In this document: positions 10-40,146 of the stretch, piece by piece
Layout of the letters: each line of letters begins with the position of its first letter
Numbering within the stretch: the stretch's first letter is position 1
From: Planctomycetia bacterium
Lineage (GTDB): Bacteria; Planctomycetota; PLA2; JAEUHO01
Reading direction: 5' to 3'
DNA length: 40,374 bases
Assembly (NCBI GenBank): GCA_030618975.1
Contig: JAUXCH010000001.1
Coordinates: forward strand, 1 to 40,374
Notes under the pieces: model-generated
Told to the model about the DNA's origin: nothing
Databases searched by the model: none
The model's input: the letters and a program-made list of their open reading frames with translations, nothing else
Made by a program: the position numbers and the translations under genes

Positions 10-1977
10 ATGCCTCGATCGGAGGACAGGCCCATGCACCGAGCCCTGGTCGTCGCCCTGCTCCTGCTCGCCGTGCCGAGCGCTCTCGGCGACCCGCCGG
101 GCGTGCACACCGACCGGCAGGGGGCGCGCGTCCTGCCCCTCCCCTGCGGGGAGGACGTCTTCCACTTCGTGATCTTCGGCGACCGGACGACCGGCCCCCC
201 GTCGGGCCTGGAGGTGCTCCGGCAGGCCGTTTCGGACACCAACCTCCTGGGCCCCGATCTCGTGATGACGGTGGGCGACCTCGTGGGCGGCTACAACCGG
301 CGCCCGGAGTGGCTGGCCCAGATGCGCGAGTTCCGCGCGATCATGCAGGGGCTCGACGTGCCCTGGTATCCGGTGCCGGGCAACCACGACGTCACCTGGG
401 GAGGCGGGACGCCCCCGCCGGGCCACCACGAGAGCGACTTCGAGACCCACTTCGGTCCGCTGTACTACTGGTTCGAGCACAAGGGGGCGGCCTTCGTCAC
501 GCTCTACTCCGACGAGGGCGATCGGGAGAGGAACCGCAAGGGTTGGGGCAACGCACGCGTCAACCGGATGAGCGAGACCCAGCTCGCGTGGCTCGCGAAG
601 ACCCTCGAGCAAACGAAACAGCACGACCACGTGTTCGTCTTCCTCCACCACCCGCGCTGGGTCGAGGCGTACTACCCGGGCTCCAACTGGGACGCCGTCC
701 ACACCCTCCTTCAGAAGGCCGGAAACGTCACGGCGGTCTTCGCGGGCCACCTGCACCGGCGCCGCTACGACGGCGTCCGCGACGGCATCGAGTACTTCAC
801 GCTCGCCACCACGGGCGGAGCCCTGCCGTTCGAAGCGCCCGGCACCGGGTACCTCCACCACATGAACGTCGTGACGGTCCGCGACTCCGGGATGACGGTC
901 GCCACGATCCCCGTCGGGGCGGTCCTCGATCCTCGCGAGATGACCCAGGAGCGTCGGACCGACGTGGACCGACTCCGCTGGCTCGAGCCCGTCGTCCAGG
1001 GCGACGGGCTGGTGGTCGCGGCCGGCGGGCGTGCGAACGGCACCTACCCGCTCGAGGTGGAGAACCCGGCGAGCCGCCCGATCCAGGTGACGCTCTCGCT
1101 CGACACGCCCGACCGGGGGTGGTTCTTCGCTCCGAGCCATCACCACGTCGAAGTGCCCGCGGGCGGGAAGGTGGAGGTCTCGTTTCGCTACGGCCGCGAC
1201 CACGAGGACGGACTCGCAGGGCTGAGCCTCCCCTCGCTGGCGCTCCAGGCGGACTATCTCGGCGAGACGACCCGCATCTCCCTCCCGGAGCGGAACCTCC
1301 CCGCCGTCTGGCGCCTGCGGAGCCTGCCGCCGGACACGTGGGACGGCACCGAACCCCGGGCACTGAGCGTCGAGAAGAACGCCTGCCTGACGGTCCCGGC
1401 GCAGCGGCTCGACATCCCGGACGGGGCGTTCACGATCGAGGGGTGGATCCGCGGCGACGACTTCGGGGGTCGCCGCGCGTTCCTGGCCAAGACGGAGAAG
1501 TCGGAATACGGCCTCTTCGTCTCGGACGGGCGTCCCGTCTTCTCGGTGTTCCTCGGCCGAGGCTACGTCACGGCCTCGGAGCAGGAGCCCGTCCTCGAGC
1601 CGGGGCGTTGGCACCACGTCGCCGGCGTGTTCGACGGCTCCGAGGTGCGGCTCTACGTCGACGGGAAACTGCTCGCCGCGCAGCCCGGGGAGGGCCGACG
1701 CCGCCGGAACGAGTGGCCGCTCTTCGTCGGCGCCGACCCGGACCGGCGCGGTCACCCGACCAGCGGCTTCGACGGCCTGATCGACGAGGTCCGTGTGTCG
1801 CGGGGCGCGCGCTACGGCCAGGCCCCTTTCGAGCCGGCGCGGCGCTTCGAGCCGGACGACGACACCCTGCTGCTGCTCCACCTCGACCGGGGGCTGGGTC
1901 CGATCGCACCGGATCACGCAGCGGGCGGCCGACACGCACTGAGTCGCGGCAAGGTGGAGTACGCCCCCCTCGACTAG
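10..1977 (+). CDS. secreted calcineurin-like metallophosphoesterase with C-terminal LamG/concanavalin-like domain
   Basis: 655-aa ORF. Signal-like N-terminus (ALVVALLLLAVPSALG). Metallophosphoesterase blocks GDRT, GDLVGGY, GNHD, LHHP, GHLH. The C-terminal ~200 aa has a LamG-type pattern (FTIEGWIRG..WHHVAGVFDGSEVRLYVDGKL..IDEVRVS). Alternative ATG at 34. Confidence 0.85.
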   Translation: MPRSEDRPMHRALVVALLLLAVPSALGDPPGVHTDRQGARVLPLPCGEDVFHFVIFGDRTTGPPSGLEVLRQAVSDTNLLGPDLVMTVGDLVGGYNRRPEWLAQMREFRAIMQGLDVPWYPVPGNHDVTWGGGTPPPGHHESDFETHFGPLYYWFEHKGAAFVTLYSDEGDRERNRKGWGNARVNRMSETQLAWLAKTLEQTKQHDHVFVFLHHPRWVEAYYPGSNWDAVHTLLQKAGNVTAVFAGHLHRRRYDGVRDGIEYFTLATTGGALPFEAPGTGYLHHMNVVTVRDSGMTVATIPVGAVLDPREMTQERRTDVDRLRWLEPVVQGDGLVVAAGGRANGTYPLEVENPASRPIQVTLSLDTPDRGWFFAPSHHHVEVPAGGKVEVSFRYGRDHEDGLAGLSLPSLALQADYLGETTRISLPERNLPAVWRLRSLPPDTWDGTEPRALSVEKNACLTVPAQRLDIPDGAFTIEGWIRGDDFGGRRAFLAKTEKSEYGLFVSDGRPVFSVFLGRGYVTASEQEPVLEPGRWHHVAGVFDGSEVRLYVDGKLLAAQPGEGRRRRNEWPLFVGADPDRRGHPTSGFDGLIDEVRVSRGARYGQAPFEPARRFEPDDDTLLLLHLDRGLGPIAPDHAAGGRHALSRGKVEYAPLD

Positions 1978-2330
1978 AGATCGGTGTACTTGCGGGCGGT
2001 GCCCTTCGCCTTGTGCACCGGATACTTCTCGGCGTTCGTCACGAGCTTCTTGCGCACCGCGTCGGGCAGCGAGATGCCCGAGGCCTCGGCGAGGTAGAGC
2101 AGGAACATCTGGACGTCGGCCATCTCCTCGGCCAGCCGACGCAGGAAGCCCTCGTCCTCGAGGTCCGCACGCACCTCGTCGCGCGTCTTCCACAGGAAGA
2201 GCTCGCCCAGCTCCCCCGCCTCGATGCCCAGACCCAGCGCGAGGTCCTTCGGATGGTGGAACTGCGCCCAGTCCCGTTCGTCGCGGAAGTGGACGGCTTC
2301 GCGCCGGAGCGCGTCGAAGGTGTCGCTCAC
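1974..2330 (-). CDS. MazG-like all-alpha nucleotide pyrophosphohydrolase
   Basis: Only the last 118 codons of the 420-aa track ORF read as protein (VSDTFDALRREAVHFRDERDWAQFHHPKDLALGLGIEAGELGELFLWK..EEMADVQMFLLYLAE..KYP). GTG start at 2330-2328 overlaps the TGA stop of the upstream TPR gene (GTGA). The rest of the track ORF is an Arg/Gly-rich shadow frame. Confidence 0.8.
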   Translation of the reverse strand: MSDTFDALRREAVHFRDERDWAQFHHPKDLALGLGIEAGELGELFLWKTRDEVRADLEDEGFLRRLAEEMADVQMFLLYLAEASGISLPDAVRKKLVTNAEKYPVHKAKGTARKYTDL

Positions 2331-16072: not shown

Positions 16073-16267
16073 ATGGCGAGGATCGGGCGGTACGTGATCC
16101 GTGCAGTCGCGCACATCTGCGTCTGGGCGTACTACAGGCTGTTCGAGGTGCGGAATGCGGTGCGCATTCCGAAGCGCGGCCCGATCCTGATCGTCGCCAA
16201 CCACCCCAACGCGCTCGTGGATGCCGGCGTGGTCCTCTGTGCCGTCCCGCGTCCCGTCGCCTTCGTC
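16073..16267 (+). pseudogene. 5' fragment (about 65 codons) of a PlsC/LPLAT-family acyltransferase gene
   Basis: MARIGRYVIRAVAHICVWAYYRLFEVRNAVRIPKRGPILIVANHPNALVDAGVVLCAVPRPVAF carries block I (NHx4D). Family-like sequence ends at ~16267. The ORF then runs on to 16591 through unrelated, out-of-frame duplicated DNA. Confidence 0.7.
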
Positions 16268-16375
16268 GATCGTCGCCTCGGGACTGTTCGCGAGGATCTA
16301 CGCGGAGCGCGTGCGGTTCTGGTAGGTACGGCTCGCGGGTCTCGGACCGATCCGGAAGCCGCGCAGACGCTGGCG
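16268..16375 (+). repeat. decayed duplicate of 20455-20565 (internal segment of the downstream acyltransferase/YiiX ORF)
   Basis: 16268-16342 versus 20455-20529: 75 nt with 2 mismatches (16320 t/c, 16324 a/g; the second turns TGG into TAG in the homologous frame). 16343-16361 versus 20530-20548: 14 of 19 identical. Further on there is only patchy similarity with indels. Confidence 0.85.
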
Positions 16376-16447
16376 CGTGACGTCGATCCCGAAGAACGAG
16401 GCGCCGAACGTGGTGCGACCCTCGAACGAGTCGTGCATCCAGGAGAA

Positions 16448-16508
16448 GCGCCCGAAAGCGTGTTGCTTTCGGGCGCTCCCACCCACCCCGCCCGAAGTCC
16501 CGGGCGGG
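16448..16508 (-). terminator. two tandem GC-rich hairpins downstream of the lipoprotein gene
   Basis: Perfect 12-bp stem GCGCCCGAAAGC (16448-16459) / GCTTTCGGGCGC (16465-16476) with a 5-nt loop. Second 8-bp stem CCCGCCCG (16487-16494) / CGGGCGGG (16501-16508). Confidence 0.55.
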
Positions 16509-16792
16509 TCATTTCACGTCACCGGCTCAGACCCAGCGACGGCCGCTGCCCCGGTGGGAGCGGACTCGGACGACGACGATCCGGGCGATGAAGAGCCCGT
16601 CGACGGGTGTGCTCCGGGGCCGCCCCCGACGTCGCAGCCGCCCTTCGCGCCCCTTTCACCGTTGCAGACGTAGACCGGAATTTCGCCGGGGGTGTCGACG
16701 CGGATGTCGCCGGCCGGGCAGTTCGCGCCCGGAGGCTCGTCCGTGATGGCGGGCCCACGCCCGAGTCCGGGGTGCCGCCGACGGTTCCCGCG

Positions 16793-19282
16793 TCAATCGT
16801 CGACTGCGGCCTTCGTAGCGGGAACGGGAATCTCCCGGGTGATGTCGATCTCGGTGAGCTGCGGCCACCGCGTTCCGAATCCAGTATCCCGCGTCGTGCG
16901 GACGAGCACCGTCACCGCCGGCGTGGCCACCTTGGGGTCGAGGCTGTAGATGAGGCCGCGCGTCTCGGAGTCCTTGACGACCAGGTAGTTGGCGCCGACG
17001 ATGCGGCCGTCGGCGAGCTGGGTCAGCACACCCTCCGGCTCTTCCCCGGTCAGGTCGATGCCGTCGAAGTGGTGCAGCACCTGATAGCGAGAGCCCGTGG
17101 CCGCCGCCGGGTCGTATACGAAGAGCGTTCCCTTGTCGTTGCTGCCGCCCAACCTGGTGAGCCCGTAGAGCTTGCCGTCGGTTCCGTGCAGGAGGGCGCT
17201 CGAGGGCCCTGCACCGCCGGCCCCTCCGGTGAACTCGTGAATCACCGAGTAGCCCGTCCCGATCGCCGCAGCGAGGTCGATCTGGTAGAGCACGCCGTGG
17301 TCCGCGGCGCCCCCCGCGATGGTGGCCCCATAGAGCATCGTGCCCACCTTCGTCACGCCCACGGATGCATGGAGGCCCAGAGCCGGTGCGGCGGATGCGG
17401 TGAAGGTGTGCAACATCGTATAGGGTAGGGTGGGCTCGGCGGGCTCGTAGGAAAAGACCGTCGCGTCCGTCACTCCGTAGAGCGTCCCGGCGTCGTTGAC
17501 GAGGGTGTAGAAGGGCGGTACGTGCTCAGAACCCAGCTTTTCGAGGGAGGTCATCTTGAGGGTGGTGGGGTCGATCCGCAAGAGAGTAGGAAAGGGGATA
17601 TCAAGCGTAAACGCGAAACCAATGGCGTAGAGCATGCCGTCGGCACCCTCCGTCGGAGGCATGTAACCAGCATAGATGTAAGTATCGTTGGGGGATTCCC
17701 CCTCGCGCGTGCGCACGTAGCGCGTCGCGCCCGACACAGGGTCGAGTTCCATGACCCCTCCGCCTAAGTTGAACGCGAAGGGCGTCGTAGTGCCTACTCC
17801 CCCGGCGCCCAAGAAGCTGTAGAGCTTGCCGTTGGAGTGCAAGACCATGCCACTACGCGGCATGGCACCGTCCGGATAACCCAAGGACTGCTCGTGCAGG
17901 AACCCGTTGAATCGGTCGTACTCGAAGAGCGAGCCTTGGTTGAGGCTACCGCCGTTGCCGCCCATTCCGAGCACCCCTAGCGCCGTCGGCGTGAGCACCC
18001 CGCCGGTCTCCGTGCCCACGGACAGGGGCAAGGCGAGCATGGTCGATATCCTGTCGACGCGCACATCGAACGAGACGATTTTCGCCCGCTCTTCGCCCAC
18101 GACCGCGGGAGGGCCGGCTGTGCTATCACGCAAGGCCATGAGAACGCCCCCGCCGACGTCGTAGAGGGGCCTCTGCGCCATGTCCGCGTCCGCGAAAGCG
18201 TCCATCTCGAGAGTCGAGCCAGCCACGGAGATGTTGCCCAGTTCGACGACCGAACCGTGCCGGGCGGCGCCGTAGGTTTGGCAGGCCGAGTAGCGCTTCT
18301 GGTTCGCGGAAGAAACGGCCAGCCCCTGGACATGCCCGCCTGGCGCCCACCCAGTCTCGCCGGTTACGAAGATCCCGTTACCCTCAAAGTAGTACTCATC
18401 GCTCGTACGGAGTTGCCAGTGGTTCCCGACGCGCCTACCAATACTAAAATTGAGGGCGCCGAGGATCTGCCCCCCAAGCTCGGCCATGGTCGCGCCCCAG
18501 AGGACGCTCTCACCTACCTCTATATTGCGACTCACGATGACCCGGACTTCATCGCCCACCTGCGTGGGGTCGTGGACCCACAGTGTCCCCCCACTGTTCA
18601 CGCCCCCATGGGTACACGTGCCGTAGATGCGCCCGTTGCTGGCCAGAATCATCTGGCTCTGAGGTAGCCAGCCCGTCGTGTCACGATCGAATACGTGTAC
18701 AGTCTCGAGGATATCCGTTGAAATCGTGTAGCGGAAAAGCGAGCCCGTCGGTAGTCGAGGCTGATCGGTCGCCACGCCGTACAACACGTCGTCCGAGACG
18801 AAGACCGGCGCAAAGTTGGGCGCGTATACGGTGTCGCCCCCACCCATGGAGTAGACCGTGGTCAGGGCGCGCGTGGCGGGGTCGAAGCGAACGATGCCGC
18901 CCCCCACCCACGTACCACCGTGGGGAATGAACCCATAGTACGTGCCGTCGCTTGGGTGAGCGGTGAACCCGGACGGTGGTGTAACCAGCTTCATCCCGTA
19001 TCCGGGACTTCCGGTGAAGGTGTGCAACGCCTGGGTGCCGCCGGCGAGCAGATCGTGCTCGAAGATCGCGCCCGCTTCCCCCGCGCCGCCGTGCTCGCCC
19101 GCACCGACGAGAGCGTGCACATGGACCGGCGGAAGCGGCGGAATCGGCGGAATAATCGGCGGATCCGTCGGGTCCGTCGGATCCTCGCCGCCGTTTCCTC
19201 CTGACGAGGCGCCGCACCCAACCGTGACCACGAGGGCCGTTACAAGCAATGCACGCCAGAGGCGCTGAAGGTGAAGTGACAT
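16793..19282 (-). CDS. lipoprotein with tandem GloVer (Gloeo_Verruco-type) repeats, predicted beta-propeller-like
   Basis: 829 aa. Lipobox LVVTVGC, then a Pro-rich linker. Many repeats of the type ..LH.F.G..G..P...L....DG.LYG.T..GG....G.LF.. (for example VIHEFTGGAGGAGPSSALLHGTDGKLYGLTRLGGSNDKGTLFVYDP). Sampled 60-nt lines are about 50-60% GC, below the neighbours. Confidence 0.85.
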   Translation of the reverse strand: MSLHLQRLWRALLVTALVVTVGCGASSGGNGGEDPTDPTDPPIIPPIPPLPPVHVHALVGAGEHGGAGEAGAIFEHDLLAGGTQALHTFTGSPGYGMKLVTPPSGFTAHPSDGTYYGFIPHGGTWVGGGIVRFDPATRALTTVYSMGGGDTVYAPNFAPVFVSDDVLYGVATDQPRLPTGSLFRYTISTDILETVHVFDRDTTGWLPQSQMILASNGRIYGTCTHGGVNSGGTLWVHDPTQVGDEVRVIVSRNIEVGESVLWGATMAELGGQILGALNFSIGRRVGNHWQLRTSDEYYFEGNGIFVTGETGWAPGGHVQGLAVSSANQKRYSACQTYGAARHGSVVELGNISVAGSTLEMDAFADADMAQRPLYDVGGGVLMALRDSTAGPPAVVGEERAKIVSFDVRVDRISTMLALPLSVGTETGGVLTPTALGVLGMGGNGGSLNQGSLFEYDRFNGFLHEQSLGYPDGAMPRSGMVLHSNGKLYSFLGAGGVGTTTPFAFNLGGGVMELDPVSGATRYVRTREGESPNDTYIYAGYMPPTEGADGMLYAIGFAFTLDIPFPTLLRIDPTTLKMTSLEKLGSEHVPPFYTLVNDAGTLYGVTDATVFSYEPAEPTLPYTMLHTFTASAAPALGLHASVGVTKVGTMLYGATIAGGAADHGVLYQIDLAAAIGTGYSVIHEFTGGAGGAGPSSALLHGTDGKLYGLTRLGGSNDKGTLFVYDPAAATGSRYQVLHHFDGIDLTGEEPEGVLTQLADGRIVGANYLVVKDSETRGLIYSLDPKVATPAVTVLVRTTRDTGFGTRWPQLTEIDITREIPVPATKAAVDD

Positions 19283-19374
19283 GATCTGCTCCGGATCCTC
19301 GTTTTCGGTCCCGGGATGCTAACCCCGGGTTCATCGGTCCATCAGGGAGAACCCCGTCGACAGACCAGTCAGGT

Positions 19375-19384
19375 CCCCCCCCCC
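19375..19384. repeat. homopolymer C10 (G10 on the lipoprotein coding strand)
   Basis: Read directly. Lies 93-102 nt upstream of the lipoprotein ATG (19282). Confidence 0.95.
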
Positions 19385-19400
19385 AGGAGAGGGCGGCGGG

Positions 19401-19436
19401 GGCAGGGCGGCAGGGCGGCAGGGCGGCAGGGCGGCA
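19401..19436. repeat. tandem octamer (GGCAGGGC) x4.5, G-tract rich
   Basis: Reads ggcagggc x4 plus ggca, preceded by gggcggcggg (19391-19400). Gives at least 6 runs of G3 or longer on the + strand with loops of at most 5 nt. Confidence 0.95.
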
Positions 19437-19645
19437 TGAGGAAGGCCCATCAAAGGGGCCTCAATGCATGGGGTTCAACCTACATTCCGCAGGTCGCGTG
19501 ACTCGAACCGCGGAATATCCGAACGCGCTAACCCCGTGCACGGCAGTTGGTTCCGTCACTTGCAGGTAAGTTGCCTTGCCCTCCTCAGCACTACGAGGAT
19601 CTTCGATTCCTCCTGTTCGATGGTCTGTAGCTCGCGCTGGCCCTC

Positions 19646-22279
19646 GTGTTCCCGGAGGGCCACAGCCACCTGGACGCGGAGCTGAAGGCCATTCGGCGCG
19701 GCGCGGCCAGCATCACCCTCGGCGGCGAGGTCGGCGCCGGGTTCGAGCTCGGTCTCCGGGTCGTGCCGCTCGGGCTCCACTACGAACCCAAGCAGCAGTT
19801 CGACGGCGAGGTCCACGTCCGGGTCGGAGAGAGCTTCGGCATCCGGGACCTGGCGGACGTACCCCGCGAGGAGGCGCTGCGCACGATCCAGGATCGGATC
19901 GCCGCGTCGCTGCGCCCCCTGGTCCTGCACCTGGACCGGGTCGACCTCGAGCCCCTGGTGCGGGGCGTCGCCGAGGTCTACGACGAGCACCAGAGGGCAT
20001 CGGCGGGGCGGCTCGAGCCGCGATCGAAGGTGGACGTCGTCCGCATGTCGGCCGCGTGCCTCAACCACTTCCTCGCCGCCGATCCGTCGGCCGTGGACCG
20101 CACGCGACGCTACCTCCGCCAGGTCCAGCGGCTCGAACGCCGCGCCGGCATCCACGGCGAGGCGGTCGAGGTGCGCTCCCGGCCGATCCGAAGCCTCCTC
20201 GCGTTCGGCGGCACGCTGCTGCTCGTCGTGCTCGGCTTCCCCGCGTACCTCCTGGGAATCCTGACCGGCTACCTGCCCTACCGCCTGACCGACACGGTGG
20301 CCCGCGCCGTGGCGAAGCGCCGGAAGAAGACGACGCTGCCCCGACTGCGCATCGTCACGGGTGCCGTCGTGTTCCCCGTGACGTGGGGCGTCATGACGCT
20401 CTGCGTCTGGCTCTGGTCCCGGTCTCCCGGTTTCACGCTCTTCAGCCTGGTCGCGATCGTCGCCTCGGGACTGTTCGCGAGGATCTACGCGGAGCGCGTG
20501 CGGTTCCGGTGGGTACGGCTCGCGGGTCTTCTACCGATTCGCAAGCCGGGCATGCGCCGGGTGGCGCACGCCCGCCGACGCCTGCTCGAGCTGGTGGACG
20601 AGCTCGTCCAGCGGTACCGGACCGAGACGGGGATCCGACTGCTCCCCCCGCGGCGCACTTCCTGGACCTCCCGCGTGCCGTGGCGAAGGACCGCTGCGAT
20701 CATCCTGACCGGCCTGATCGTGTGGTTCGCGTTCGGGTTTCGCGACGCAAGACTCCGCGAGCTCCCGGATCGGCCGTCGCCCTGGGCCACCCTCGACACC
20801 GCGCGCGCCACGACGACGCTCGAACGCGACGCGCAGGAGCTGGTCTCGCTGCTCGACACGCTGGATCGACTCGAGACCGGGATGTACGAGCTGAAGAAGG
20901 GGTTCGACGCGGGGGAGCGCGACTTCACGGACGTGGCGGACGACCGCGCCATCCGCCGAGCGCTGCTCACCTACCTGTCGTGCCGCAGCGCGCTGTTCCG
21001 CCTCGCCTGGTTCTACCGGGCGCCCGACCGCCCAGACGAGTCCGAGCTCAGCGTGAGGGCCTTCGTGCTGGGGTACACGGCCGGCCTCGAGCTGTGTCGG
21101 CGCGGCCTGCAGCTGGTCTCGGTCTTCGACGGATGCCCCAACGCCATCCGCAAGCTCAACGAAGGCGATGCGGCGTGGTCCCTGCCCGCGAAGACGTACG
21201 ACCGGGTGCGGCAAAACCTCGCCAGCACCGACGTCTACGACGAGCTGGCCGTGGCCACGGCGCGCTACGAGCGCCTGGGGACCGAGCAGCCCCGGCCGAC
21301 GAGGGAACCCTGGGTCCGCATCTGGAACGAGGCGGACGAAGGCCGGGCCGTCGTGAAGAAGCTGTCTGACGAGCGGTGGACGCTCAAGTGGGACGCCGCC
21401 GTCGCGCGCGCGGAGGGCACCGCCGAGGAGGCCCGCTACGCGGCCAATAAACTCGTCGCGGGCCTCATCGGCGGGGTACGGATCCGCGAGGGGGAGCTGT
21501 CGGAAGGCCTCATCAGCGACGCGCAGGTCGAGTGGCTGCGCGAGGAGCACCTCGAGCCCGGCGACATCCTGCTCGAGCGCCGCAACTGGGCCCTGTCCAA
21601 CGTCTTCCTCCCGGGGTTCTGGACGCATGCCGCGGTCTACGTGGGAGGGCTCGACGGCGTACGCGCGTTGGGCATCCAGGACGACGAGCGCGTACAACCC
21701 GTCCTCGAGGCGCTCGCTCGACCGGACGAGCACGGCGCCACCCCCCGGATCGTCGAGGCGCTCGCTCCGGGCGTCATCCTGAGTTCCCTGGAGGAGTCCG
21801 TGGGCAGCGCGGATGCCGTGTGCGTGCTGCGGCCGAAGCTCGAGCCGGACGTGCTCGCCGACGCCGTGGCGCACGCCCTGAAGCACCACGGGAAACCGTA
21901 CGACTTCGACTTCGACTTCTTCTCGTCCGACCGCCTCGTCTGCACCGAGCTCGTGTACCGGGCCTTCCAGGGGCCGATCGATTTCGAGCTCCAGCACATC
22001 CTGGGGCGCCGGACGCTGCCGGCCCTCGGGATCCTGAGGAAGTGGGCCGCGGAACGGACCCACCCCGAGGCGCAGCTCGAGCTCGTCTGCTTCCTGGACT
22101 CGGACGAGGCCGCCGGCGTGGCGCGTCCGGGCACGGAGACGGAGTTGCTGGGCACCCTCGACCGACCCGCCCTCACCGTGCTCCAGGCGCACGGAGGTAG
22201 CTCCCGGATGCCACTCGCCGCCCTCGTCACCCTCGCCGTCCTCTTCCTCGCCGCGCTCCTCTTCCTCCGCCGGCGCTGA
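19646..22279 (+). CDS. N-terminally truncated PlsC-family acyltransferase fused to a TM region and a C-terminal YiiX/YaeF permuted papain-like (C92) domain
   Basis: The ORF opens (GTG 19646) exactly at acyltransferase block III (FPEGHSH), with an in-frame TAG at 19628. Followed by LGLHYEP, then TM helices (LLAFGGTLLLVVLGFPAYLLGILTG; VVFPVTWGVMTLCVWLW). C-terminus: PGDILLERRNWALSNVF..WTHAAVYVG..IVEALAPGV..VCVLRP..GKPYDFDFDFFSSDRLVCTELVYRAF. The 877-codon frame is intact. Confidence 0.7.
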   Translation: MFPEGHSHLDAELKAIRRGAASITLGGEVGAGFELGLRVVPLGLHYEPKQQFDGEVHVRVGESFGIRDLADVPREEALRTIQDRIAASLRPLVLHLDRVDLEPLVRGVAEVYDEHQRASAGRLEPRSKVDVVRMSAACLNHFLAADPSAVDRTRRYLRQVQRLERRAGIHGEAVEVRSRPIRSLLAFGGTLLLVVLGFPAYLLGILTGYLPYRLTDTVARAVAKRRKKTTLPRLRIVTGAVVFPVTWGVMTLCVWLWSRSPGFTLFSLVAIVASGLFARIYAERVRFRWVRLAGLLPIRKPGMRRVAHARRRLLELVDELVQRYRTETGIRLLPPRRTSWTSRVPWRRTAAIILTGLIVWFAFGFRDARLRELPDRPSPWATLDTARATTTLERDAQELVSLLDTLDRLETGMYELKKGFDAGERDFTDVADDRAIRRALLTYLSCRSALFRLAWFYRAPDRPDESELSVRAFVLGYTAGLELCRRGLQLVSVFDGCPNAIRKLNEGDAAWSLPAKTYDRVRQNLASTDVYDELAVATARYERLGTEQPRPTREPWVRIWNEADEGRAVVKKLSDERWTLKWDAAVARAEGTAEEARYAANKLVAGLIGGVRIREGELSEGLISDAQVEWLREEHLEPGDILLERRNWALSNVFLPGFWTHAAVYVGGLDGVRALGIQDDERVQPVLEALARPDEHGATPRIVEALAPGVILSSLEESVGSADAVCVLRPKLEPDVLADAVAHALKHHGKPYDFDFDFFSSDRLVCTELVYRAFQGPIDFELQHILGRRTLPALGILRKWAAERTHPEAQLELVCFLDSDEAAGVARPGTETELLGTLDRPALTVLQAHGGSSRMPLAALVTLAVLFLAALLFLRRR

Positions 22280-25022: not shown

Positions 25023-25831
25023 TCGCGCAGGCCGTACACCCCGATCCGCTGCCCGACGTGGGCGAAGTGCTGGAACAGGTGTCGGCTCTTTCCGTCCGCC
25101 ATCGTCTTCGCGGGCATCGCCACGCGCCCGAGAGTGTCGCGCAGAGCCTCGAGCGCGCCTTCCGGATCGCGCTCGAGGATGCCCTTCATCATCGCGCGGT
25201 ACACGCGCTCGTGTCGGGCTTCGTCGGCCGCGATGAGTCCGCACATCTTGTGAAGTTGCGGGGCGCCGGCCTTGCCTGCGATGCTGCCGAGTTGTCGCCA
25301 CGACGTCTTCGTCGCATGCTCCTGGATCGACGCGTAGGTCAGCCCACGGAACGGATCGCCACCGGCTCCCGTGTCGAACCCGTTGCGAATCAGGTGCTGG
25401 ATCGTCTGCTCCACGGAGTTCATGTCGACGCGACCGGCGAGGTAGAGGTACCCGAGCGTGACGGCACCGTGGCGCTTCTCCTCCGCCGTCCAGCCCCTGC
25501 TCCACCGGGCCCAGGCGTGGGTCTCGACGCCCGTGCGATCCGTCAGGCCGCCGAAACGGTTGAGTGCCGTCTGATAGGAGGGAAGCGCCTCTTCGGTCAC
25601 CACGTTTCCGACGAGTACGACGAGCATCTCGTCGCTCAGATTGAGGGCCTCCGCCCGCAGGGAGGCAAGATCCTCGCTCCACGTCTCGCCGCCGAAATCG
25701 GGGAGCAGGTCGGAGGGCTGCCAACTCTCCTCGACGGATTTCAGGTTGGGCAGCAGGCCATCCACGTGCGGGAGCAAGTCGATCATGACCTGCAGGCGGT
25801 CGGGGTCCATGGTGAGTTGCTGATGCTTCAT
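24827..25831 (-). CDS. soluble di-iron acyl-ACP desaturase family protein
   Basis: ATG 25831-25829, 334 aa. Motifs VTEEALPSYQ, WTAEEKRHG, IQEHATK and IAADEARHE match the EExxH carboxylate-bridged di-iron pattern of stearoyl-ACP-desaturase-like enzymes. Confidence 0.9.
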   Translation of the reverse strand: MKHQQLTMDPDRLQVMIDLLPHVDGLLPNLKSVEESWQPSDLLPDFGGETWSEDLASLRAEALNLSDEMLVVLVGNVVTEEALPSYQTALNRFGGLTDRTGVETHAWARWSRGWTAEEKRHGAVTLGYLYLAGRVDMNSVEQTIQHLIRNGFDTGAGGDPFRGLTYASIQEHATKTSWRQLGSIAGKAGAPQLHKMCGLIAADEARHERVYRAMMKGILERDPEGALEALRDTLGRVAMPAKTMADGKSRHLFQHFAHVGQRIGVYGLRDYADNVEGFVEELRLDGLEGLPEGDAARHRDEICALPVRYRQQAEILDRQRVRPVAFPWIHGRRV

Positions 25832-25996
25832 CCGGTCTCCGGTCTCCGAGCAAAGCCTAGGCGAAGGCGGACCCCTCCGACCCGGAGAAGGCGTCTTCCG
25901 GAGTTTCGCACCGTGCTGGGCGTCGAGCCGGATGCGACGTCCCCTCTGCGTCCGTTGTAGGCTCGCCCGACTGCCCGACCGGCTGGAGGAAACACC

Positions 25997-39142: not shown

Positions 39143-40146
39143 GCTCCCGGGACCTGCCGTCGCCCGTCCCGGTCGCAGCGACGGGGTTCACATTCGTGTT
39201 CGTGTTCGTGTTCGTCGTCGCCGCGGCGCTCGCGGCCGTCCTGTTCCCCCTCGCGACCTACGCACTCACGCTCGCGGTGTTCGGCCTGGTCCACGTCGTG
39301 GTCGAGCTTCGCTACGTGGACCGCCGCTTCTCCTCGCGGGTGCCGTGGCGACTCGGGACGACGCTGCTCCTCGTCCTCGGCGCGATCGTGCTCGTGCGCC
39401 TGCTCGGACTCGCCGCCATGCTGGGGCGCGAGCCGCAGGCCGCACTCGAGCTGGGTCTCGTCGGCGCGCTCGTCCTCCTCGTGCTGCCCGTGCTGCGACG
39501 CGTGGGAGGGCTGCGCGCGCTCGTCGGTCTCGCGCTCCTGGGCCTGCTCGTGTTCGGGGCTCTTCGAGCGCCGCTGCCGACGCTGGTCCTGTTCGCCGTC
39601 CTGCACAACCTCACGCCCGTCGGGTTCCTGGCCGACGCGCTCGAGGGACGGGCGCGACGGCGAGCCCTGCTCCTCTGTGCGCTCGTGTTCGGCCTCGTGC
39701 CGCTCGGCATCGCGAGCGGTCTCCCCGCCCGGGCGCTCGCCGGATGGAGCGTCGCCGGCTTCAGCCTCCCGGACGCGGGCCGGCTCGACGCGAACCTCGG
39801 CGTGTTCGTGCCCTCTTTCTGGCAGGGCGGCGTCCGGGCCGTCGACCTGTTCTCGGCCGCCGTCTACCTCCAGTGCCTCCACTACGCGGTGGTGATCCAC
39901 GTGCTGCCGCGGCTGGCCCCCGGCCCTGAAACGAAGGACGCCGGGACGACGAACGCGGAACGTATCCCGTGGCCCGCTCCCCGCGCCTTCGCCGTGGGGC
40001 TGGCCGGGGTCGCCGCCGTTTCCTTCGCCGCGTTCTTCCTGGCCTTCTCCGACGCGCGAGCGGTGTACGGACTCTTCGCCCTCGCGCACGCGTGGATCGA
40101 GATCCCGGTTCTCCTGCTCGCGCTGGCCGTGAGACCGGGAGGCTGA
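39139..40146 (+). CDS. polytopic membrane protein with four intramembrane His motifs, unknown family
   Basis: GTG 39139 overlaps the upstream stop (GTGA). About 8 hydrophobic helices. GLVHVVVELRY, AVLHNLTPVGF, CLHYAVVIHVLP, ALAHAWIEIP. The earlier part of the 454-aa track ORF is shadow sequence. Confidence 0.7.
   Translation: MSSRDLPSPVPVAATGFTFVFVFVFVVAAALAAVLFPLATYALTLAVFGLVHVVVELRYVDRRFSSRVPWRLGTTLLLVLGAIVLVRLLGLAAMLGREPQAALELGLVGALVLLVLPVLRRVGGLRALVGLALLGLLVFGALRAPLPTLVLFAVLHNLTPVGFLADALEGRARRRALLLCALVFGLVPLGIASGLPARALAGWSVAGFSLPDAGRLDANLGVFVPSFWQGGVRAVDLFSAAVYLQCLHYAVVIHVLPRLAPGPETKDAGTTNAERIPWPAPRAFAVGLAGVAAVSFAAFFLAFSDARAVYGLFALAHAWIEIPVLLLALAVRPGG

Follow-up and report, generated by a model that had tools for sequence, protein, structure and literature searches.

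Do two slippage-prone tracts in front of a surface-lipoprotein gene in an uncultured planctomycete form a phase-variation switch, or are they left over from another kind of sequence? The locus that raises this question lies in a window (the whole stretch of DNA that was analysed, 40,374 nucleotides) from a MAG of 1,019 contigs (5.67 Mb, 70.2% GC). The reading favored here, at a probability of roughly 0.55, is that the tracts arose as by-products of mutation in a GC-rich hairpin module, one that expanded and decayed, was brought in with foreign DNA and possibly still acts as a terminator or insulator. On that reading, a single GC hairpin that decayed and expanded can explain why paired slippage-prone tracts stand before a surface-protein gene.

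The tracts, the gene and the foreign block

The features concerned are as follows, with coordinates in the window.

16073-16261, plus strand: N-terminal 63 codons of a split PlsC-type acyltransferase / YiiX (C92) gene, by homology
16262-19645, no strand: lower-GC block of 3.4 kb in place of PlsC-YiiX codons 64-120, from GC, tblastn and relatives
16267-16342, plus strand: left-junction filler, a copy of 20454-20529 whose first 53 nt are exact, carrying a TAG, by repeat comparison
16793-19282, minus strand: GloVer (TIGR03803) lipoprotein gene, 829 aa, single-copy and without a close homologue
19289-19292, minus strand: Shine-Dalgarno GGAG, 6 nt before the ATG
19310-19329, minus strand: 8-bp hairpin CCCGGGGU-UAGC-AUCCCGGG, 28-47 nt upstream of the ATG (-14.1 kcal/mol, z -1.8)
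19375-19384, minus strand: G10 homopolymer (C10 on the plus strand), an arm of an interrupted GC hairpin
19401-19436, plus strand: octamer array (GGCAGGGC)x4.5, from the sequence, extended by TRF to 19390-19436
19429-19465, minus strand: core common to contig C396 (86% over 37 nt, by similarity), including TTCCTC
19442-19462, minus strand: hairpin GAGGCCC-N7-GGGCCUU (-11.5 kcal/mol, z -2.4)
19482-19518, minus strand: strong hairpin AUAUUCCGCGG...CUGCGGAAUGU of the outer spacer (-18.9 kcal/mol, z -3.9)
19646-22279, plus strand: rest of the split gene (877 codons, beginning with FPEG), in divergent orientation to the lipoprotein gene, by homology

The initial annotation had placed a homopolymer and an octamer repeat, the latter preceded by GGGCGGCGGG, at these positions, and it is exact to the base for both. 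At 19375-19384 the plus strand is CCCCCCCCCC and the gene-sense minus strand reads G10, 93-102 nt upstream of the lipoprotein ATG (19282-19280, minus strand). Further out, 119-154 nt upstream of the ATG, four copies of GGCAGGGC and a terminal GGCA make up the 4.5 copies of the array; GGGCGGCGGG (19391-19400) comes immediately before it, with AGGAGA between C10 and GGGCGGCGGG. Over its longer interval TRF finds a period of 8, 6.1 copies and a score of 80, the top score in the window, and on the gene strand the unit is of the GCCGCCCT type and the array is C-rich. Both tracts are outside the lipoprotein ORF, upstream of whose ATG 12 codons are open. A perfect 36-nt array of period 8 is beyond chance, and the array is a true tandem duplication. 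With a hypermutable simple repeat taken to be either a homopolymer at least about 8 long or a short unit repeated several times, G10 and the 8-mer at 4.5 copies both fall within the definition, and the spacer looks slippage-born and potentially hypermutable.

Genome-wide, TRF returns 19 rows, at about 17 loci, of non-triplet arrays with periods of 7, 8, 10 or 11 and at least 4 copies; 16 of the 19 rows are non-coding and by score the window's octamer array ranks fifth. Other non-coding arrays, with units of 6-8 nt, have a CGTGG or TTCGTG core (CGTGGTT, CGTGGGG, CGTGGTG, CCACGAA, CCACGCAC and TTCGTG, at C132:14754-14801, C691:961-1005, C769:2524-2562, C452:11173-11203, C732:1312-1369 and window 39193-39215), possibly one family, whether of binding-site arrays or of slippage arrays. 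Elsewhere in the window there is a heptamer repeat, TCCGGTC, at 25831-25848, and a cluster of three SNPs (25841-25852) in and just beyond it is common to three of four Logan contigs.

The homopolymer by itself calls for caution, as at 70% GC both G/C runs of 10 and G-quadruplex (G4) motifs are background. The C10 run is not exceptional, since the genome contains 31 G/C runs of at least 10 (and 114 of at least 9), fewer than the ~130, or ~0.9 per 40-kb window, that composition predicts (i.i.d., 35% C and 35% G, 5.67 Mb). Two of the runs of 10, at C13:4629-4638 and C573:1572-1581, are in coding-like frames. There is also a palindromic repeat, GGTGCCWGGCACC, with about 115 sites in the genome (C760:14880-14955, C137:11549-11722 and C222:1-42 for example), flanked as ...cctcGTAC-core-ccgcaagggacaacgcc or -gataccgcacggcGTCAGG and followed by tails of C7-C15. 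Contig ends hold many of the copies. The repeat resembles a REP/MITE-like family with poly-C tails, and many of the genome's long G/C runs come from it. Membership of the tracts in that family was considered and set aside, as no core occurs near them within 2 mismatches and the sole feature in common, GTCAGG(T) plus a C-run, is expected to match once or twice by chance.

The lipoprotein gene call is sound and agrees with what had been annotated: the leader and lipobox are MSLHLQRLWRALLVTALVVTVGC and there are four TIGR03803 'GloVer' repeat matches (E 9.5e-36). Its own genome has no second copy, the gene was not found in the 40 relatives searched, no homologue above 32% identity was found among 5.8 billion proteins, and a search with the N-terminal 300 aa gave no match.

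The gene is carried by DNA that differs in composition from its surroundings, as had been proposed: GC is 0.657 in the block and 0.705 in the flanks, and GC3 is 0.80 in the GloVer gene and 0.92 in neighbouring genes. In Planctomycetota relatives the PlsC-YiiX gene is intact (997-1019 aa). tblastn with the intact protein of one of them (G008) places residues 1-63 at 16073-16261 and residues 121 onward from 19649, with 64-120 replaced; the 877-codon ORF corresponds to the C-terminal part of the PlsC-type acyltransferase fused to a YiiX/C92 domain. The lipoprotein gene, to judge from sequence comparison, is horizontally acquired within this foreign block, whose right-hand end is the 363-nt spacer (19283-19645) that holds both tracts, and the locus documents a recent complex insertion splitting a conserved lipid-enzyme gene. 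The exact 53-nt repeat is at 16267-16319 and 20454-20506. All four right-side Logan contigs (L105-L108, from four SRA runs) end at window 20477, and Logan contig L016 starts at 16290; each of these positions precedes the end of the 53-nt repeat by 30 nt, which fits the k=31 assembly graph that we take Logan to use. As contigs end at the repeat in four samples it is present twice in all four, and we infer that the insertion allele of the split gene is too.

A hairpin module and its relative on contig C396

On the gene strand, going inward towards the gene, the spacer begins with an ORF tail, followed by the hairpins 19518-19482 and 19462-19442, TTCCTC and the array; after the array come GCCCCCGCCGCCC-TCTCCT-G10, ACCTGACT, the 8-bp hairpin (19329-19310), the Shine-Dalgarno sequence and the ATG. 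The ORF tail is 25 codons long (19556-19630, minus strand, ...TIEQEESKILVVLRRARQLTCK*, with its TGA at 19558-19556) and stops about 40 nt short of the strong hairpin. The tail may represent the 3′ terminus of a donor gene that lay upstream, whose terminator would have come in with the block. Several other identities for parts of the spacer were considered. ARAGORN and Rfam (E up to 1) gave no match to a tRNA or known RNA in the spacer, and that empty result lends no support to a 'tRNA relic' at 19484-19533, strong as the hairpin there is. A small ORF running across the tracts (19316-19501, 61 aa) has no coding-like composition and is uncalled in the Logan contig, and inspection by eye showed no core sites of an integron cassette or attC. 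No U-tract follows the hairpins, and the sole site given by a terminator scan, at 19283-19297, is unrelated to the tracts.

One other place in the genome resembles the spacer. It is C396:12041-12077, with 86% identity over 37 nt and E values of 4e-5 and 1.3e-5, the next best match in 41 genomes being at E 0.012; the similarity is short and with nhmmer and blastn-short it is borderline (E 0.07-0.1). A larger repeat family was sought by blastn-short, nhmmer and the 41-genome search, and these returned the C396 copy alone. The C396 sequence reads ATTGCGGCCCCTATGAGGGGCCTTCCTCGAGCCGCCCCCTCTGGGGGCGGCACCTGACTT, and it forms two perfect hairpins (-14.2 and -21.8 kcal/mol, z -2.4 and -3.9) in the order ATTG-hairpin1-TTCCTC-GCCGCC...CCCTCT...GGGGG-ACCTGACT. 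The window reads ATTGAGGCCCCTTTGATGGGCCTTCCTCATGCCGCCCT(GCCGCCCT)3GCCCCCGCCGCCCTCTCCTGGGGGGGGGGACCTGACTGG, so that outside the array the elements are in the same order, including the 8-mer ACCTGACT directly after the G-run, and collapsing the array makes the two sequences collinear again. The difference lies in hairpin 2: in the window its left arm (GCCGCCC) is multiplied, and where C396 has the right arm GGGGGCGGC the window has an uninterrupted run of G. This comparison of two sequences over a short similarity indicates that the array probably arose by tandem multiplication of a hairpin arm.

The C396 copy starts some 40 nt beyond the stop codon of an ORF on the minus strand, 1611-2045(-) of the locus L002 (G000:C396:10541-13157), and its neighbours, at a contig end of lower GC, are a PcfJ-like gene and an IS5-type transposase (DDE_Tnp_1_5, E 1.5e-33). 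L002 is probably mobile or accessory DNA. It also holds two ORFs of unknown function and a triple GC-hairpin cluster, and the contig end cuts the transposase. The window and C396 copies are therefore both in accessory DNA.

The favored account of the tracts is then as follows. The spacer would have arrived with the foreign 3.4-kb block as a stack of stem-loops, GC hairpins without U-tails of the type found after genes in high-GC bacteria. Among them may have been one ancestral hairpin of the form GCCGCCCCC-loop-GGGGGCGGC, like the C396 relative. Replication slippage on this self-pairing, G/C-only sequence could have turned its left arm (GCCGCCC plus T) into about five tandem octamers, and its right arm would be what is now the pure G10; we infer this order of events from the comparison. 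Such DNA would be intrinsically slippage-prone. It is upstream of the lipoprotein core promoter and most likely no part of it, so that changes in tract length should be nearly neutral. At most the spacer might separate the divergent lipoprotein and truncated PlsC-YiiX genes, as a terminator or an insulator. Points against this account are the shortness of the C396 similarity and a tract layout that some real contingency loci share. The hairpins at 19442-19462 and 19482-19518 and both of those in C396 exceed the stability that composition predicts, but the window's G10 hairpin (19373-19403, -20.1 kcal/mol) has a z of -0.1, no more stable than shuffles, and the hairpins in the window, in addition to having no U-tails, are preceded by the 25-codon ORF tail alone, with no intact gene ending beside them.

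Alternative readings of the tracts

The initial annotation saw in the tracts a possible phase-variation switch. On this reading slipped-strand change in G10, in octamer number or in both would alter promoter geometry or leader structure, giving on/off or graded lipoprotein expression, with a benefit such as escape from phage or grazers. The case for it is that a G10 run and a 4.5-copy non-triplet repeat, both of hypermutable types, stand 93-154 nt before a lipoprotein ATG, that the array itself records past slippage at the site, and that non-triplet arrays are rare in the genome (~17 loci). There is precedent in the 7-mer and 8-mer SSRs 69-213 bp upstream of Haemophilus influenzae hmw1A/hmw2A (PMC2651432), and two slippage-prone tracts 100-150 nt before a surface-lipoprotein gene is the layout of some real contingency loci.

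Against this, no promoter candidate straddles a tract. A consensus scan of 16300-19800 found no sigma-70-like promoter; Planctomycete promoters are poorly known, so that this sigma-70 result is weak evidence and a promoter of another type, ECF for one, may involve the tracts. Relaxing the scan gave matches of 7 of 12 positions at most. The best such lipoprotein candidate, CTGATG-18-TAGCAT, ends at 19316, downstream of both tracts, and no candidate from the relaxed scan has a tract in its spacer.

The length variation that would mark a switch was also sought. An exact look-up of the region returned one Logan contig, a single consensus contig from SRR29278634 that equals window 16290-19508 with two SNPs (16750 and 16753) and no gaps, and being gap-free it has an identical C10 run and the same 4.5 octamer copies; a lone consensus of this kind is little guide to lengths carried by a minority. 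A difference in length between strains or assemblies was thus not borne out in the one independent assembly available. The two SNPs are in a 92-codon open stretch past the lipoprotein TGA. Three further runs hold the species at 99.7-99.8% identity (SRR19605679, SRR28925091 and SRR19605675), and no contigs over the tracts were found from these three. Length variants searched for in JGI metagenome contigs and GTDB genome contigs, by a flank pattern with variable gaps, gave no match, nor did the 5′ end of the lipoprotein gene in JGI metagenome contigs.

As to conservation at orthologous loci, the gene is absent from the 40 relatives searched and has no close homologue, which leaves no orthologous upstream regions for comparison; with a single-copy gene, 40 relatives and 5.8 billion proteins, the tract layout does not recur at any orthologous or paralogous surface-protein gene. 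Further points against a switch are that the array has 4.5 copies and the hmw repeats 12-38, that G/C runs of this length are ordinary in the genome and many come from a repeat family, and that, among the papers searched, those mentioning phase variation together with Planctomycetes do so in passing, none of them reporting phase variation in the phylum. What stands of the initial proposal is that the tracts are of slippage-prone type and, from the C396 comparison, that the array probably grew by multiplication; a link of the tracts to a promoter, variation in their length and recurrence at orthologous loci found no support in the scans, the one other assembly and the searches.

A contingency locus is on this evidence unlikely. 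A working switch to which G10 and the octamer array both contribute, the repeat having begun as a terminator-like hairpin and been co-opted later, is a shade less likely again. Were it real, Planctomycetota would gain its first reported case of SSR phase variation; the switch would extend SSR contingency loci from host-associated pathogens to free-living high-GC planctomycetes and it would show a repeat born from a hairpin arm.

A G4 element is a much weaker candidate. The plus strand has six tracts of at least three Gs between 19391 and 19431, and a canonical motif (G3+N1-7 x4) matches from 19391, so the strand may be G4-competent, as had been annotated; since the array is C-rich on the sense strand, the G-rich strand is the template strand of the lipoprotein gene, and its folding might impede RNA polymerase there or act in the leader of the PlsC-YiiX remnant. 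Such motifs are, however, ordinary in this genome, which has 1,107 of them (12 in the window), 81 with six or more G3 tracts, and with that background and no relatives to compare, the motif neither stands out nor is conserved in a way that would point to selection. Structure prediction pairs this region with the neighbouring C10 in ordinary GC hairpins, and a G4 role is very improbable.

That assembly error produced the tract lengths or the entire spacer is scarcely credible: the MAG is fragmented, GC-rich repeats are hard to sequence and many long G/C runs are at contig ends, but the independent Logan assembly reproduces 16290-19508 without gaps, the 36-nt array is well inside one read, and the ends of the Logan contigs are accounted for by the 53-nt exact repeat.

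Known systems

According to PMC2651432, citing Dawid et al. 1999, the SSRs of H. influenzae hmw1A/hmw2A are (TGAAAGA)13-38 at 69-106 bp and (GCATCATC)12-15 at 200-213 bp upstream; the copy number of the heptanucleotide modulates expression, and an 8-mer SSR is also present between divergent genes. The planctomycete locus shares with hmw non-triplet repeats of 7-8 nt some 100-200 nt before a surface-protein gene and outside its ORF. It differs in having 4.5 copies of a unit that is all G/C plus one A, with the same length in the one other assembly, in a lipoprotein gene without paralogues or orthologues of matching layout, and in promoter candidates that come here from scans alone.

In porA and opc, poly-G/C tracts are in the promoter spacer. 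The Neisseria and Campylobacter poly-G/poly-C tracts, whether in promoters or intragenic, have a high mutation rate (PMC5320596, PMC8355987). The present locus resembles these in a G/C homopolymer of about 10 nt adjoining a surface-protein gene. In those genera the tract sits inside the ORF or separates -35 from -10. The present one is 93-102 nt upstream and without flanking promoter hexamers, in a genome whose 70% GC makes such runs expected. In Mycobacterium tuberculosis, homopolymer and tandem-repeat phase variants are reported to have been shown by population sequencing (PMC11898584, PMC12817950). The likeness is that of SSRs in a GC-rich genome not traditionally viewed as phase-variable, and the difference is that population sequencing was the basis there and assembled contigs alone are the basis here.

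In high-GC bacteria, clusters of GC stem-loops after genes are known as 'I-shaped' terminators, which have no U-tail, and as REP-like palindromes. With two related copies in the genome the present module is not a REP family, and its window copy is degenerate. With the GC stem-loop clusters it nevertheless shares tandem, very stable and U-tail-less hairpins in intergenic DNA, and the C396 copy, like them, is just past a stop codon.
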